Shown: in pieces, positions 57,939 to 64,000 of the stretch
Layout of the letters: every line of letters starts with the position of its first letter
Numbering within the stretch: the first letter of the stretch is position 1
Assembly: GCF_024502345.1 (NCBI RefSeq)
Contig: NZ_JALDNN010000003.1
DNA from: Escherichia coli
GTDB lineage: Bacteria > Pseudomonadota > Gammaproteobacteria > Enterobacterales > Enterobacteriaceae
Direction: 5' to 3' (one strand)
Length of the DNA: 64,000 nt
The notes under the pieces: model-generated
Databases searched by the model: none
What the model was told of the DNA's origin: nothing
What the model saw: only the letters and a program-made list of their open reading frames with translations
Position numbers and translations under genes: made by a program

Positions 57939-58259
57939 TCAGCAGGAGACAGATGCCACGCTACTGAGCTTGTTGCGTATGTTTTCTCGTTCACAGTTCC
58001 AGGCTGTATCAATAATACCCGCAGCCCATGCTGGCATGTGTGGCGACAGTCGGTAATGCACCCATTTTCCTTCGCGACGGTCGATGACCAGCTCGGCTTC
58101 ACGTAAAAGGGCCATATGGCGAGAAATTTTTGGCTGAGACTCTGCGGTTGCCGCACAGATGTCACAGACGCACATTTCACCGGACTCCCTGAGAAGCATC
58201 ACGATAGTTGAACGGGTCTCGTCGGCGAGCAGTTTAAAAAGCTGAACAGGCTGTAGCAT
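57939..58259 (-). CDS. arsR: ArsR/SmtB-family arsenite-responsive repressor
   Basis: MLQPVQLFKLLADETRSTIVMLLRESGEMCVCDICAATAESQPKISRHMALLREAELV... with the ELCVCD metalloid-binding motif. Confidence 0.9.
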   Translation of the reverse strand: MLQPVQLFKLLADETRSTIVMLLRESGEMCVCDICAATAESQPKISRHMALLREAELVIDRREGKWVHYRLSPHMPAWAAGIIDTAWNCERENIRNKLSSVASVSC

Positions 58260-58285
58260 GCTTAACCTCGTAAAAAAATAACAAT

Positions 58286-58305
58286 ACATATGGTATTTCA
58301 TATGT
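58286..58305. promoter_or_regulatory. Candidate ArsR operator in the arsR-arsH divergent region
   Basis: Imperfect palindrome ACATATGgtatttCATATGT between divergent arsR and arsH. Confidence 0.35.
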
Positions 58306-58345
58306 GATAACTTTTAAAGCATAGCTTATGAAATGGAGATTTTTT

Positions 58346-59050
58346 ATGACCGACTTACCAGCAATCGAACCGGCTTATTTTGATGATGCGCTTGCCAGCA
58401 AACTTACGGGCAACAACGAAACCATGCCGCGAATTCTCATCCTGTACGGTTCAGTACGAGAGCGGTCCTACAGTCGTTTTGCAGCGGAAGAGGCCGGGCG
58501 GTTGCTGGCAAAGATGGGGGCTGAGGTGAAAATATTTAACCCATCCGGTCTGCCGTTACCCGATGATGCGCCCGAAAGTCACCCCAAAGTGCTTGAACTC
58601 CGCGAGCTGGTCAGGTGGTGTGACGGAATGGTCTGGAGTTCTCCGGAAAGACATGGCGCCATGAGCTCGGTGATGAAGGCCCAGATTGACTGGATACCCC
58701 TGAGTGAAGGTGCTGTTCGTCCTTCCCAGGGTAAAACGCTGGCCGTCATGCAGGTTTGTGGTGGTTCACAGTCGTTTAACACGGTCAATCAGATGCGGAT
58801 ACTTGGCCGCTGGATGCGGATGTTCACCATCCCCAATCAGTCGTCAGTGCCAAAGGCATGGCAGGAATTTGATGATGAAGGGCGCATGAAACCCTCACCC
58901 TGGTATGACAGGATTGTCGACGTTACCGAAGAGTTGTTCAAAATGACGTTACTCCTGAAAGGGCACACAGCCTACCTGTCCGACCGCTACAGCGAAAGGA
59001 AAGAGAGTCATCAGGAGCTCGCGGCACGGGTCAATCAGGCCAAAATCTGA
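58346..59050 (+). CDS. arsH: ArsH, NADPH-dependent FMN reductase
   Basis: GGAG RBS; ...[27 protein letters not shown]... flavodoxin-like fold. Confidence 0.85.
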
Positions 59051-59082: not shown

Positions 59083-60486
59083 TTAAATCGGTTTCTTCCC
59101 AAATATCTCTTCAGAGCGTGACTGAAGTTTCACCAGGGCATTGAACATATCGTCCTGATCCAGGGAACGCTGGGATTTCTTCGTCGTGGGAGCTTTACGC
59201 CTGCGAGAAGGGCCGTCTCCGGATGGTACGGATTGCGACCGGTTATTATCCCGCTCGGCCTGGACCAGCTGCGCCATTTCCAGGGCCCGCCCCAGACGTT
59301 TGTTATCCACAATGGCCCCCTGATCGATTTCAGAAAGCTTGTCATAGGTGGAGTAGGGAAGTGATACGCCATTAAGCCGGAGCTCTTTATGTCCATCCGG
59401 GTAATGCCAGACATCGATGTATTTACCAATCGCCCGACGACTGAATTCGCTGTCTTCAATCAGATAAAGGACTTTGTCGTATTGCACTGTGAGTGATTTC
59501 GACACTTTACGAGCTTCACGCCAGTTAAATACCATATCAAGATCGTCATCGACATCCAGTTCCCGATGAACATCAAACTCCTGGCGAGGCGCTTTTGCGA
59601 AACGACGGTTGTAATCGTTCATGAACTCTTCGGCAAATGCGTTCGCAGCTTCCATGGAACTGATGCCCTGGAGCCTGAGCTCCTTGACCAGTCGGTCCTG
59701 AAGCGTCAGGTGCGCCCGTTCAACGCGGCCTTTGGCAGCACTGGTTTCTGCACAAATGGTCTGAATGTTCAGTTCATGCATCGCACGGCCAAACTGGGTA
59801 TCGCCGTCGCCGCCGGTTGCATTTTTATTGTTGATCCTGAATACGCTGGCTTTGTCGCTGTACAGCGCAAGCGGTTTGCCATGTTTTTCAATATAGCCCC
59901 GGGTCGCTTCAAAATAGGTGAAAGTAGACTCAGATTTCACGAAAAGAAGCTGCATTAAACGACTGGTTGCGTCATCAACGTAAACCAGTGCCGTACACTT
60001 AGGTCCCCGATTTTCAAACCAGTGGTGGTCGCAGCCGTCGATTTGTATGAGTTCACCGGCACAGGCACGGCGGTAACGAGGTTGCTGAATTTTTGGCGCA
60101 CGTTGCTTACGTGGGACCCACAGACTGGCCTGAGTCATCAGCTTACGGACGGTTTCTTTGGAAAGATGAACACCGTGCACCTCAGACAGTTTTTCACAGG
60201 CCAGCGTCGGACCGAAATCGTTATAGCGTTCGCGAATAATGTTCAGCGCGTATGCGGCCAGTCCCTGAGGCAACTGGTTGTTACTGGATTTACCACGACG
60301 GCGGCTGGTCATGCCAATCGGACCATCTTCACGATAACGCGCAAGCAGACGACGGCACTGACGGTCGGAGATACCAAGCCGCTGAGCTGCCATTTGTGTT
60401 GTCAGACGCCGGTCGATGACATCCTGAATGATTTTGAGTCGGTTAACTTCATCCAATGTGAAAAACTCCGCTGCGAGAGCCGTCAT
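59083..60486 (-). CDS. DDE transposase with N-terminal HTH and integrase-core domain (IS481/ISNCY-like)
   Basis: 467 aa; HTH (MAAQRLGISDRQCRRLLARYRE); integrase-core residues (...LIQIDGCDHHWF...ALYSDKASVF...TSAAKGRVERAH...); AAGGA RBS. Confidence 0.7.
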   Translation of the reverse strand: MTALAAEFFTLDEVNRLKIIQDVIDRRLTTQMAAQRLGISDRQCRRLLARYREDGPIGMTSRRRGKSSNNQLPQGLAAYALNIIRERYNDFGPTLACEKLSEVHGVHLSKETVRKLMTQASLWVPRKQRAPKIQQPRYRRACAGELIQIDGCDHHWFENRGPKCTALVYVDDATSRLMQLLFVKSESTFTYFEATRGYIEKHGKPLALYSDKASVFRINNKNATGGDGDTQFGRAMHELNIQTICAETSAAKGRVERAHLTLQDRLVKELRLQGISSMEAANAFAEEFMNDYNRRFAKAPRQEFDVHRELDVDDDLDMVFNWREARKVSKSLTVQYDKVLYLIEDSEFSRRAIGKYIDVWHYPDGHKELRLNGVSLPYSTYDKLSEIDQGAIVDNKRLGRALEMAQLVQAERDNNRSQSVPSGDGPSRRRKAPTTKKSQRSLDQDDMFNALVKLQSRSEEIFGKKPI

Positions 60487-60507
60487 GGTAATCCTTACTT
60501 GATTATA

Positions 60508-60530
60508 CACGCCGGACATCTTAACTTAGC
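60508..60530 (-). repeat. Right copy of the 23-bp imperfect inverted repeat, 21 bp upstream of the transposase start
   Basis: CACGCCGGACATCTTAACTTAGC is the reverse complement of the 53381-53403 repeat (20/23); additional GGACAT motif at 60538-60543. Confidence 0.45.
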
Positions 60531-60780
60531 CATTATCGGACATTACAACTTTGCTACTACAGACTTTGTCAAAGCAAGTTTAAAATGTCACCTCTTTGTG
60601 CAAGATAGAAAGGGCACTTTCAGCCTATGTAATCATATTAATGTGACTGCTGCGTTATCCCACTCAACCAATTAATAAAGCAAAAGTTAAATATGAAAGA
60701 CTGGAATAAAAATATAACGAAAACATCTTAATATGGAAATATCTGTGTCAACGGGATCTTTAGTTATTGAATATCTGGTT

Positions 60781-61587
60781 CTAAATAGGTTCTACATTCA
60801 ACGGGAAGGGAAACCAAATATCTATATGTTTTTTATAAATACCATTACGTGGCAAACAACAATCTGCATATTTTTTTAAAGAATCTCCACATGGACAAAT
60901 ATTTTCTGGCGATAATACTCCATCATGTTCTTTCGCCTTAAATCTCCAGGTCGTAATATTGAAAATTTGATGTGGGGATTGTATGTATTTGACAACACTA
61001 ATTAAAGTTGAATAGTTATAATGATCACCATCATTGGAGAAAAAAACACTACATTTGTTAACGGGATTACTAACTATGTCATAAGTAATTAATTCAAAAT
61101 CGATCACTTCATCAAAGCAAAGAACTCCATTATAAAGTTTATTTTTAACATGACCACAATCATTAATAAAACTACGGGTTGTATTACATACTGAACATTT
61201 CACTTCTTTTATTATTTCACGAGAACTACCGAAGATTTTATATGGGAATAACGCCTGCCAATTACATACCATTCTCGCTAAGAAGTTAACACCATAGAAA
61301 TTAACCTCAGGCAGAAACTCATTATTTTCTTTAATATGTATTAAATCTATTTCTATCCTTTCAAGTTCTACCCATGCTTCATAAAAATCACCTCTTGTAA
61401 GTAAATTAATGACTTGAATATATTTTAAATGGGCTAGTAAAATTGTTTTGTATAAAAACAATCTGTTTGATTCATTATTCAAGCTCAAGGATTGAGCTTT
61501 TTTTAACTCAGCATTAAGATAATCAAGAATAGCACTATCTTCTTGAGTAATACACATCCAACGCTTTAACTTTTCGTGAATATTCAT
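60781..61587 (-). CDS. hypothetical protein with C-terminal SEC-C-like metal-binding motif
   Basis: 268 aa, about 30% GC; C-terminus CPCGDSLKKYADCC and an internal CSVCNTTRSFINDCGH cluster. Confidence 0.55.
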   Translation of the reverse strand: MNIHEKLKRWMCITQEDSAILDYLNAELKKAQSLSLNNESNRLFLYKTILLAHLKYIQVINLLTRGDFYEAWVELERIEIDLIHIKENNEFLPEVNFYGVNFLARMVCNWQALFPYKIFGSSREIIKEVKCSVCNTTRSFINDCGHVKNKLYNGVLCFDEVIDFELITYDIVSNPVNKCSVFFSNDGDHYNYSTLISVVKYIQSPHQIFNITTWRFKAKEHDGVLSPENICPCGDSLKKYADCCLPRNGIYKKHIDIWFPFPLNVEPI

Positions 61588-61604
61588 AATATCTATATAG
61601 ATTT

Positions 61605-62051
61605 TTATTTGATTTTGTTAATTACTTTTAAAACATCGTCTACTTTTCCAGAAACAGTGTATTTCACATGTTTTCCTGATTTATTTTTTTTAATTATAGA
61701 GACTTTAACGTCTATATCTCTAGTTCCAAAGTTATCAATTTTTTTCTGAATATAATTTGAAACAAGATTTACTAAAAAAGGTATCATTACTGATGTGGCA
61801 AAGAAAGTGCCTAACGCTAACGTTATACTGTTTAATTGCAGGTACGAAACACCATTAGAATCTCCGTACACTTTAACATTAGAATGTGATTGCTTGGTGA
61901 ACTGGAAAAAATCCAGTGCATTACCTCCAGTAATTTTTGAACTATCAAAAACGATCGCAATCTCATCATCTTGAGGTTCATATGAAGAAATGATTTTTAC
62001 CTCTTCATCTTCATCACTCATTTCACTCAAAGTAATGGGGTTCATTCTCAA
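61605..62051 (-). CDS. hypothetical small protein with one predicted transmembrane helix
   Basis: 148 aa; acidic N-terminus, hydrophobic segment ITLALGTFFATSVMIPFLVNLV, basic C-terminus. Confidence 0.5.
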   Translation of the reverse strand: MRMNPITLSEMSDEDEEVKIISSYEPQDDEIAIVFDSSKITGGNALDFFQFTKQSHSNVKVYGDSNGVSYLQLNSITLALGTFFATSVMIPFLVNLVSNYIQKKIDNFGTRDIDVKVSIIKKNKSGKHVKYTVSGKVDDVLKVINKIK

Positions 62052-62197
62052 CTCCTTGTTTTATATTTTTACATTCAAATTTTACTATACGACTGGTTAA
62101 TTGCTCCTGTCCAACACACACCAGAGTTCATATGCTTAGCATACAAGGGACCAATGCCAGTAGCGACAGGCTAGTGTGTCAAAAAACCACATGAAGA

Positions 62198-63559
62198 TCA
62201 ATCTCCTGCGGAAAATTTGGCCGCAATTAGTTTCATTGTCCTTTCCATGCCTTGATAAACTGTCGCATCTGTAATGTTTAACCTTGCGAGTTCCTTAAGT
62301 ATTCTAGCTTTGTTTCTGATCACTATTTTTTCTACTTTAAACTCTTGCATAGCATCATCAGGGTTTGAAACTAAATCGGGATAAACAGCATTATTCCCAA
62401 ATAATAAGAATGCACCTGACTGTGATGACATCCTTTCATTATTATTTCTTCCTTTAACGAAAATTAACCTTTCCAAATCTGATGGTATAATTACATCTTT
62501 AAAATAAGGTTTTTCATCTTTAATGTAATGTATGAGTTTTTGACAAGCTTCAGTTTTATTGAAAGCCTCCTTGTCCATTTTACAATCCAGCTGATCTTTC
62601 AGTGTTTGACTTAGCATTGATATATTTGATATGCAACTTACTGTATCAGAGTCAAAGAATTTTATACGATCCCTTTTTGTTTTGAAAATAATAACATGTC
62701 CATCAACCTCATTTGTATTTTCATTATTACTAATGTCGCAACAAGCGAAATACAGAGCGATTAGTGGATTTGATGTTATATCCAACAAACGAGTTGGTAG
62801 TCCGTAGTGTTGCATCCTTACTAACTTGTCTAGCATTGTTTTATCATCAACAAACTCAGTTGGCCTTGCTGTTAGGGCTTCACGGACTAAATTTGATTCA
62901 CTGTGCAAATGCTTGAAGTTACCTTTTTTGTTTTTCCTGAAAACTGATGGAGCCAACTCGTAAGATACATCAGAATGTCCACGATAAAATATTTCTGCAT
63001 CTTCTTCATGATCTTGTTCTAAAACACGCGCCATGAAACTTTGAACATTATCTATTATTGGGTAGTTATCAACTTCATCAGGAAGTGCTTCAGTAGGAGG
63101 AAGTGGTGTACTTCTTGTCGTTATATTTAGAAGTGCTAATGTTTGATTTAAATCACGTGCTTTTATTCCCCAGTGAGTCCGTTTCAGCCCATATGCACCT
63201 AATTCTAAAGCTGTTTGATATAACTCTTTGTTTATCACTACGACATCATCTTGTGAGTGAGTGATTCTGAAATCAAACTCAACATTTTTGTTAACTGTTC
63301 GTAGATTTGAAATTACACCAAGTCGCAAAGTAATGTATTCAACATTGTCTCGGGAATAAAGTTCTGACATAAAAAGCGTAGGTAATTTCTCAATATAAGA
63401 TAATGCTTTATCATTCAAAGGCGTTAACTTCAACCGGATGTCATCAGAGGTGCCTTCTAACATACGTGATATAGGAAAATCACAACTCCCACTAACCCGT
63501 TCATACATGGGCCAATGTTCAAAATAGTCAGGTTCTCCGCCCATAATTAGATTAAACAT
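62198..63559 (-). CDS. FRG-domain protein (453 aa)
   Basis: FRG signature IFYRGHSDVSYELAPSVFR followed by HYGLPTRLLDITSNPLIALYFAC; flanking N- and C-terminal regions unrecognised; AAGGA RBS. Confidence 0.65.
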   Translation of the reverse strand: MFNLIMGGEPDYFEHWPMYERVSGSCDFPISRMLEGTSDDIRLKLTPLNDKALSYIEKLPTLFMSELYSRDNVEYITLRLGVISNLRTVNKNVEFDFRITHSQDDVVVINKELYQTALELGAYGLKRTHWGIKARDLNQTLALLNITTRSTPLPPTEALPDEVDNYPIIDNVQSFMARVLEQDHEEDAEIFYRGHSDVSYELAPSVFRKNKKGNFKHLHSESNLVREALTARPTEFVDDKTMLDKLVRMQHYGLPTRLLDITSNPLIALYFACCDISNNENTNEVDGHVIIFKTKRDRIKFFDSDTVSCISNISMLSQTLKDQLDCKMDKEAFNKTEACQKLIHYIKDEKPYFKDVIIPSDLERLIFVKGRNNNERMSSQSGAFLLFGNNAVYPDLVSNPDDAMQEFKVEKIVIRNKARILKELARLNITDATVYQGMERTMKLIAAKFSAGD

Positions 63560-63572
63560 TAAAACTAAATCC

Positions 63573-64000
63573 TTATATTTTACTTAATGAATTATTTACA
63601 ATCCAATCAATTGCGCCAGAGGTGCGAATCCAAGGCTTTATATTATGATTCACATAATAAATGGCTTCATCCATTCCACCTAACGTGATATATCCACTGT
63701 TAGACTTGATCTGTAATCTGCACTTCGATAACAAGCCGGGGATGTGTCTATTAGAATCAATCGCAGCTTTAGCGATATCATCGGCATCCGGGGATGACTG
63801 TCGGTAGGCGAGTAGGGCGCGTGTATACTGAAAAAACGAACGCATATCCCCAGGATAATCGTCCAGTAGCAAGGCCAGATCATCCACCATTTCAAGCTCA
63901 AGGTAATAGTTCGCTAATAAATGACGAATCCCCTGGTTATCGTTCGGGTTGAGCTTCAGCATTTCGCGGCTATGAGCCATAGCCGGATAAAAATTACCAG
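63573..64000 (-). CDS. hypothetical protein, probably 5'-incomplete at the window edge
   Basis: Frame open from the window end; first ATG at 63980 lacks a convincing RBS; stop 13 bp before the FRG gene start. Confidence 0.4.
   Translation of the reverse strand, partial: GNFYPAMAHSREMLKLNPNDNQGIRHLLANYYLELEMVDDLALLLDDYPGDMRSFFQYTRALLAYRQSSPDADDIAKAAIDSNRHIPGLLSKCRLQIKSNSGYITLGGMDEAIYYVNHNIKPWIRTSGAIDWIVNNSLSKI

Follow-up and report, generated by a model that had tools for sequence, protein, structure and literature searches.

The 64,000-nt window analysed here is a stretch of Escherichia coli contig NZ_JALDNN010000003.1, and at its right end lies an AT-rich block of four minus-strand genes encoding a TPR/ST7-like protein, a 453-aa protein with an FRG domain, a small protein with a single predicted transmembrane (TM) segment and a 268-aa protein that ends in a SEC-C motif. 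The block is enclosed by two transposase genes of the ISNCY family, both on the same strand, so that the full minus-strand array reads ISLad2-like transposase, TPR, FRG, small protein, SEC-C protein, ISKpn21-like transposase. The same 3.4 kb recurs at 100% identity in about 200 large conjugative plasmids from Klebsiella, Enterobacter, Citrobacter, Escherichia and Salmonella, and every plasmid record that was inspected closely is of replicon type IncHI2A. We propose, with a probability of roughly 0.6, that it is a mosaic of three independently mobile units, namely the TPR gene with its transposase, the FRG gene, and a pair formed by the small membrane protein and the SEC-C protein, the last two being candidate defence units that act separately.

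Read from its letters alone, the block had been taken for an operon built around the FRG protein, a candidate defence module, and much of the anatomy given in this sequence-only reading held. A scan for open reading frames (ORFs) returned the four tightly packed co-directional genes with the same intergenic gaps (17, 146 and 13 nt, left to right), and the 453-aa product matches Pfam FRG (PF08867) at aa 189–279 (E=1.5e-21). The single TM segment of the small protein stands, but its length of 148 aa, which is obtained when the ORF is extended to a TTG start at 62051, is likely to be 146 aa as in RefSeq, counted from an ATG at 62045 behind AGGAG. The SEC-C-like motif of the 268-aa protein, C231-P-C233...C243-C244 (nt 60856–60897), is present with all four cysteines invariant in 14 homologs, although the match to Pfam SEC-C (PF02810) is not significant (E=1, 9.8 bits). 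GC content is 0.27–0.37 over 60500–63750 compared to 0.48–0.56 in the 10 kb to the left, so the contrast with neighbouring DNA is real, but the neighbours reach about 56% and not 65%. The foreign, mobile setting beside a transposase was borne out by the two ISNCY genes, while the predicted continuation of the operon past the window amounts to the rest of the 267-aa TPR gene, which an ISNCY transposase gene (annotated 'ISLad2 family') directly precedes just past the window edge.

Modularity of the block

Comparative loci split the block at every intergenic junction. A tblastn co-occurrence matrix of 29 loci contains FRG alone, the TPR gene and its transposase alone, and the small-TM/SEC-C pair alone. 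The unit of TPR gene and ISLad2-like transposase (about 2.2–2.3 kb) occurs at 82–96% identity without FRG in > 200 Klebsiella and other plasmids, and the homology of other plasmids to the window stops 16–21 nt short of the TPR gene's 3' end, the shared unit beginning at about 63589. The K. variicola plasmid pLY161 carries FRG, TPR and transposase at 91% identity without the downstream pair, and its homology begins exactly at the FRG stop codon. FRG homologs of 44–93% identity lack the TPR, small-TM and SEC-C genes in five lineages, and the pair is found without FRG in 15 other lineages, FRG being its companion in IncHI2 plasmids alone. Conserved co-occurrence of the four genes across genomes was thus not seen among these loci, and the interpretation of the block as one system built around FRG has to be given up. 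That interpretation was partly supported, being right on mobile cargo of defence type, including the recurrence of FRG proteins in defence-island contexts, and wrong on the unit. The combination of genes had not been recognised as any named system, which is explained by its being a juxtaposition of separate modules. A vague 'four-gene system' is in this way replaced by two units, FRG and the pair, that can each be tested separately.

The TPR protein gives weak TPR_14 and ST7 signals and belongs to a family with at least 1476 homologs. In several hundred plasmids its gene comes directly after that of the ISLad2-like transposase (L001:14974–17182; L001 is plasmid pCRENT-193_1, and a window coordinate is the L001 coordinate plus 48599), while a 43%-identical homolog in Sphingomonadales lies between Tn3-family tnpA and resolvase genes and another, in an integrative and conjugative element of Pectobacterium, has no adjacent transposase. 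FRG proteins elsewhere do without it. We regard the TPR gene as linked to the transposase and not as part of a defence system, judging from these neighbourhoods, and it may be a transposon accessory gene. In its place immediately downstream of a transposase, and in the Tn3 arrangement around its homolog, it resembles the passenger genes of insertion sequences (IS) and transposons; it differs from them in that no terminal inverted repeats were found for the unit and that its ends vary by tens of bases among records, and for these reasons the gene lies only putatively inside the element. No terminal inverted repeats of 9 bp or more were found at the candidate ends of either ISNCY element, and the two transposases are 51% identical to each other (tblastn); on these grounds a composite transposon with two copies of one IS is not supported.

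Some observations weigh against the division into separately acting defence units. The four genes and both transposases are co-directional and are kept together at 88–93% identity in a second IncHI2 lineage, so that the genes may be co-transcribed and may have some functional interplay on the plasmid, and our literature search turned up no paper with experiments on the FRG or SEC-C family. We nevertheless consider it highly improbable that the TPR, FRG, membrane and SEC-C proteins cooperate as one four-gene defence operon, and rejected this candidate because of the splits at every junction. The short gaps, the shared direction and the absence of any minus-strand terminator-like site inside the block in a sequence scan all suit a single operon, as does the conservation in the second lineage, but the latter is explained by shared plasmid ancestry, each component is found without the others in many independent contexts, and nucleotide homology with other plasmids breaks at the module junctions. 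A promoter-like site in the 146-nt gap between FRG and the pair is consistent with the pair forming a transcription unit of its own; it is only suggestive, since promoter- and terminator-like sites are no more numerous in the region than in shuffled sequences. The block could also be inert hitch-hiking cargo that persists only through the success of the IncHI2 backbone, which we judge improbable. Identity across about 200 plasmids leaves no within-lineage variation that could reveal selection, the block has been hit by IS1, IS5 and ISSen4 and is degenerate in one copy, and it is present in only 23 of 5426 complete E. coli genomes. Against inertness, all ORFs in the window are intact, and homologs at 25–70% identity retain full-length ORFs, invariant Cys/His residues, catalytic-looking motifs and the pairing, and therefore indicate purifying selection on the families. 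We thus prefer the mosaic, whose parts are listed in Table 1.

Table 1. Position of the genes, domains and sites of the block and its left border in the window
Feature	Position (nt)	Strand	Details
ISNCY-family (ISKpn21-like) transposase gene	59083–60519	minus	left boundary of cargo slot; ORF and RefSeq 'ISNCY family transposase'
Conserved segment of ~98 bp	60537–60634	not assigned	between left transposase gene and SEC-C gene; blastn
SEC-C-motif gene	60781–61587	minus	268 aa; ORF scan; ending ...CPCGDSLKKYADCC...
Small single-TM gene	61605–62045	minus	146 aa from ATG (likely start)
Promoter-like site TGGACA-18-TATAGT	62084–62113	minus	in FRG-to-pair gap; consensus match only
FRG gene	62198–63559	minus	453 aa; ORF scan
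FRG C-terminal FRG/ART-like region	62210–63061	minus	aa 167–450; profile and model
FRG N-terminal PUA-like domain	63125–63559	minus	~aa 1–145; predicted fold
TPR/ST7-like gene, 3' part	63573–64000 (window edge)	minus	full gene 267 aa at L001:14974–15777

The FRG protein and the downstream pair

The FRG protein belongs to a family of > 4000 homologs, nearly all of about 445–460 aa, and is matched over its full length by phrog_4962 (1e-106). Fourteen profiles of the PADLOC entry PDC-S15 match it, the best of them (PDLC04936, E=1.7e-99) over aa 167–450 only. By these matches it is a single-gene defence candidate that has already been catalogued, to which a predicted reader domain now adds a testable idea. 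The N-terminal domain is modelled as a PUA-like beta-barrel with likeness to YTH, EVE and ASCH folds, and its fold matches include EVE/THYN1 with 5-methylcytosine DNA (7.0), ASCH, the McrB N-domain with 5-methylcytosine DNA (5.6), VcaM4I and the 5-hydroxymethylcytosine-specific PD-T4-3 (5.2). Its alignment has no Pfam match even at E≤10, hence no match to EVE, YTH or ASCH, and no PDB profile match, and the assignment as a reader is therefore a purely structural one. The model of the C-terminal domain weakly resembles the ADP-ribosyltransferase (ART) fold, with matches that include the RNA 2'-phosphotransferase Tpt1 and RES/ParT. Residues that are invariant in the family alignment include Y192-R193-G194-H195, Q250-H251, T256-R257, D260, N264-P265, R376 and S379-Q380, for which no mapping onto the canonical H-Y-E or R-S-E triad was obtained. 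FRG was the sole family matched in Pfam, which returned no nuclease domain.

Full-length homologs of the FRG protein stand alone in the Peduovirus P2_2H1, where the replication gene precedes it, and in the lambdoid phage Tritos, near hokD, in both cases on the strand opposite to the neighbouring phage genes; in PhiR11_1 another such homolog adjoins an IS2 copy. E. coli P2-like prophages have it next to a type VI retron (L022:7474–8710; RT_VI 1e-105, HTH_VI 6e-30), in the interval from the portal gene to gpA. This position corresponds to the old/tin defence hotspot of P2-like phages reported by Rousset et al. 2022. In Morganellaceae an FRG homolog adjoins SIR2-HerA. As a separate observation, a K. 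pneumoniae IncFIB/IncHI1B plasmid has TIR-domain and macro-domain genes convergent to its ISLad2-TPR unit (L003:4495–5951), in the position that FRG has in IncHI2 plasmids; this is another gene pair linked to NAD+/ADP-ribose beside the same IS unit.

The downstream pair is more novel than the FRG gene, being broadly distributed, strictly paired and absent as a family model from the libraries searched. Family-level models are lacking for both the SEC-C protein and the small protein in Pfam, NCBIfam, PADLOC 2.0 and PHROGs 4; searches of these libraries and PDB profile searches returned no more than motif-length matches, with none to PDB or Pfam for the small protein, and the pair family has a weak local match to phrog_16951. 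The SEC-C protein is predicted to consist of an N-terminal helical bundle (aa 1–112), a beta domain and the C-terminal motif, and the beta domain contains a second invariant site, C131-x2-C134-x9-C144-x-H146 (nt 61150–61197), plus C157. In divergent homologs (L044:6001–6837 and L047:5800–6792) the C-terminal 25–35 aa that form the SEC-C region match the C-termini of PDC-S12 and of CBASS E2 / E1-E2 profiles, so that unrelated defence proteins share this motif at their ends. Hydropathy, charge and alignment give the small protein an acidic N-terminal part, one hydrophobic, putatively TM segment (aa 74–92, nt 61770–61826, Kyte-Doolittle 1.99), which is conserved in homologs, and a basic C-terminal stretch of about 45 aa. 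No DNA-binding antitoxin-like domain was found in either protein.

The two genes were paired in all 16 lineages examined, which include Proteobacteria, Bacteroidota and a cyanobacterium, with the small-protein gene immediately upstream of the SEC-C gene each time, either overlapping it or separated from it by at most 17 nt (HMM scores 21–117 bits). At 50% identity the SEC-C family falls into about 1,000 clusters, and fold relatives in AFDB are annotated from several further phyla. The pair occurs in a Pseudoalteromonas megaplasmid (24% identity for the small protein, 31% for the SEC-C protein), a Rep3 plasmid, an AlpA/H-NS island, a Proteus P2/186-like prophage and a Pseudomonas chromosome, in four distant metagenomic members, and in genomes of Flavobacteriales, Mucilaginibacter, Pedobacter, Flavobacterium and Calothrix. 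In the Proteus prophage it is flanked by the genes for the CI repressor and the integrase, all on one strand, and in an IMG/VR prophage it follows the integrase gene at a contig end. A collection of phage genomes yielded no SEC-C homolog and IMG/VR only two loci; a scan of a genome collection with narrow peptide patterns found only 8 loci.

Eight of the 14 informative contexts of the pair adjoin defence-type genes that match PADLOC profiles, and two more are positions in prophage lysogeny modules. The neighbours, with their PADLOC E-values, are a type II restriction enzyme with methylase (L030, 1.4e-133), a dGTPase with a HIT protein (L034, 2e-96), PDC-S20 (L045, 1.6e-170), HEC-06 (L044, 1e-38), an AriA/OLD-like ATPase with an NYN protein (L043, 9e-25), a PDC-M68A-like HNH protein (L015, 3e-28), a KAP NTPase (L008, 1.2e-09, a weak match to PifA) and, in the IncHI2 resistance plasmid described here, FRG as PDC-S15.

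Proposed functions of the two units

From the predicted folds we infer that FRG would be a single-chain sensor and effector. The PUA-like domain would recognise a feature of invading nucleic acid, most likely a modified base; recognition would switch on the C-terminal ART-like FRG domain; and the activated domain would consume NAD+ or ADP-ribosylate a target, with the result that infection is aborted. In this logic the protein would be like the type IV restriction enzymes but with NAD+ chemistry. It shares with McrB (through its N-domain), VcaM4I and PD-T4-3, whose readers are of PUA-like, EVE or SRA type, the combination of an N-terminal predicted reader and a C-terminal effector in one polypeptide, and it differs from them in that the effector is ART-like and not a nuclease, and in showing no sequence similarity to the EVE, YTH and ASCH families. 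The Aravind group assigns Frg to the ART superfamily and predicts it to be an NADase effector (PMC9503650). The protein agrees with PDC-S15 and the Frg clade of Burroughs and Aravind in the region matched by the 14 profiles, in standing alone in defence hotspots, in having homologs without a conserved partner in five lineages and in its weak likeness to the ART fold; the subfamily here adds the N-terminal domain of about 145 aa, outside the best profiles and predicted to be a base reader of PUA type. PDC-S15 is itself only a candidate, for which we found no published validation, and the literature search returned no experimental study of FRG in defence.

From the strict pairing and the genomic contexts we infer a defence phenotype for the pair as well. 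The role of sensor or adaptor could fall to the cytosolic zinc/SEC-C protein and that of anchor or effector to the single-pass membrane protein, and the outcome could be phage exclusion or abortive infection, following a logic like that of lambda RexA/RexB, by analogy with the cI-linked rexAB. The partners have about 270 and about 145 aa, as in RexA/RexB, and one prophage has them in its lysogenic operon, immediately after the CI repressor gene; elsewhere they are carried on mobile elements. The differences are that the membrane partner has one predicted TM segment instead of four, that the two genes come in the opposite order, and that two predicted zinc sites and a SEC-C motif are present in the soluble partner. 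The likeness is a proposed functional analogy, and no similarity of sequence or profile was found; PADLOC and PHROG profiles gave no family-level match for the pair proteins or their divergent homologs, the presence of Rex models in those libraries not having been verified. A second comparison is with Rugutis, the only SEC-C antiphage protein found in our literature search, a validated, plasmid-borne lactococcal single-gene protein of 359 aa with an N-terminal SEC-C motif (PMC11381338). Both have the SEC-C zinc motif on a fold that is otherwise without PDB match, and both are plasmid-borne, but the SEC-C protein of the pair has 268 aa, a C-terminal motif and an obligatory membrane partner, and is set apart by the description of Rugutis; the plasmid tblastn search gave no Lactococcus match. 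We tentatively propose that the pair is an unnamed, widespread two-gene anti-phage system, acting by abortive infection or superinfection exclusion, in which the SEC-C motif would attach the sensor to the membrane or to some conserved cellular machine, and that FRG is, separately, a modification-reading enzyme with NAD+ chemistry and not a nuclease. If validated, the pair would be a new system for the defence catalogues, and would offer an initial clue to the function of the many bacterial proteins annotated as 'SEC-C motif / zinc chelation protein SecC'.

Each half of this proposal has a competitor. For FRG, the domain may work like DarT, CmdT or Tpt1 as an ADP-ribosyltransferase of nucleic acids, not depleting NAD+, with the PUA-like domain positioning it on DNA or RNA. 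The resemblance of the N-terminal domain to nucleic-acid base readers and the presence of Tpt1 and RES/ParT among the ART matches both point this way, and we regard this as unlikely. For the pair, some findings count against an anti-phage role. Four of the 14 informative contexts have no defence neighbour, one pair lying between thrA and thrC; the scan of neighbours covered chosen large genes only and had no background rate, so that the association with defence is suggestive and not statistical; and the hydrophobic segment contains K or N in some homologs of the small protein, for which reason membrane insertion is given here as predicted. The pair may accordingly be an addiction or toxin-antitoxin module, or may serve the mobile element in some other way, for instance through membrane-linked regulation or plasmid entry exclusion. 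Toxin-antitoxin modules likewise reside on plasmids, islands and prophages, the ORFs of the pair overlap in places, a small membrane protein is potentially toxic, and the SEC-C gene is dispensable, as it is disrupted by IS1 in some IncHI2 plasmids. We are doubtful of this explanation, in view of the defence-type neighbours and the two lysogeny-module positions, of the absence of an antitoxin-like domain, and of the size and complexity of both proteins, which exceed those of typical type II toxin-antitoxin partners.

The IncHI2 cargo slot

Two other IncHI2 plasmids help to define the site in which the block lies. In L029 (NZ_CP030080.1), a sister IncHI2 plasmid, a 210-aa hypothetical protein gene and ISKpn21 replace the four genes and ISLad2 at the same backbone position, whereas the diverged IncHI2 lineage of the Salmonella plasmid pST_HI2_NDM-1 (L005) is the one that keeps the whole block. 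Because these two plasmids carry alternative genes at or beside it, we call the slot variable, and on comparison of these sequences the site of the block is a variable, ISNCY-bounded cargo slot of IncHI2 plasmids. The alternative genes of the Salmonella plasmid (L005:8548–10467) are one for an 'S-4TM family putative pore-forming effector' and a 332-aa partner, which occupy the place of the ars operon next to the left transposase gene. IncHI2 plasmids rank among the chief vehicles of carbapenemase, mcr and heavy-metal resistance genes in Enterobacteriaceae, and defence genes on them affect the interplay of the host with phages and competing plasmids, phage therapy included.

IS1, IS5 or ISSen4 interrupt the block in several IncHI2 plasmids, for example IS1B within the SEC-C gene of NZ_CP109608.1. 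In one E. coli plasmid (L007:5600–7120) FRG is truncated by IS1 and the pair is frameshifted, which may be real decay or assembly errors.

Between the genes for the left transposase and the SEC-C protein, a conserved stretch of about 98 bp (L001:11938–12035) matches L002:5648–5745 at 85% and L003:4362–4430 at 87% (blastn), where its neighbours are unrelated, the segment lying after ISKpn38 in the former and before the TIR gene in the latter; it may represent the end of an IS or a scar left by recombination. Directly to the left of the ISKpn21-like transposase gene, at 57939–59050, are arsR (minus strand) and arsH (plus strand), with arsB and arsC further left in matching plasmids.

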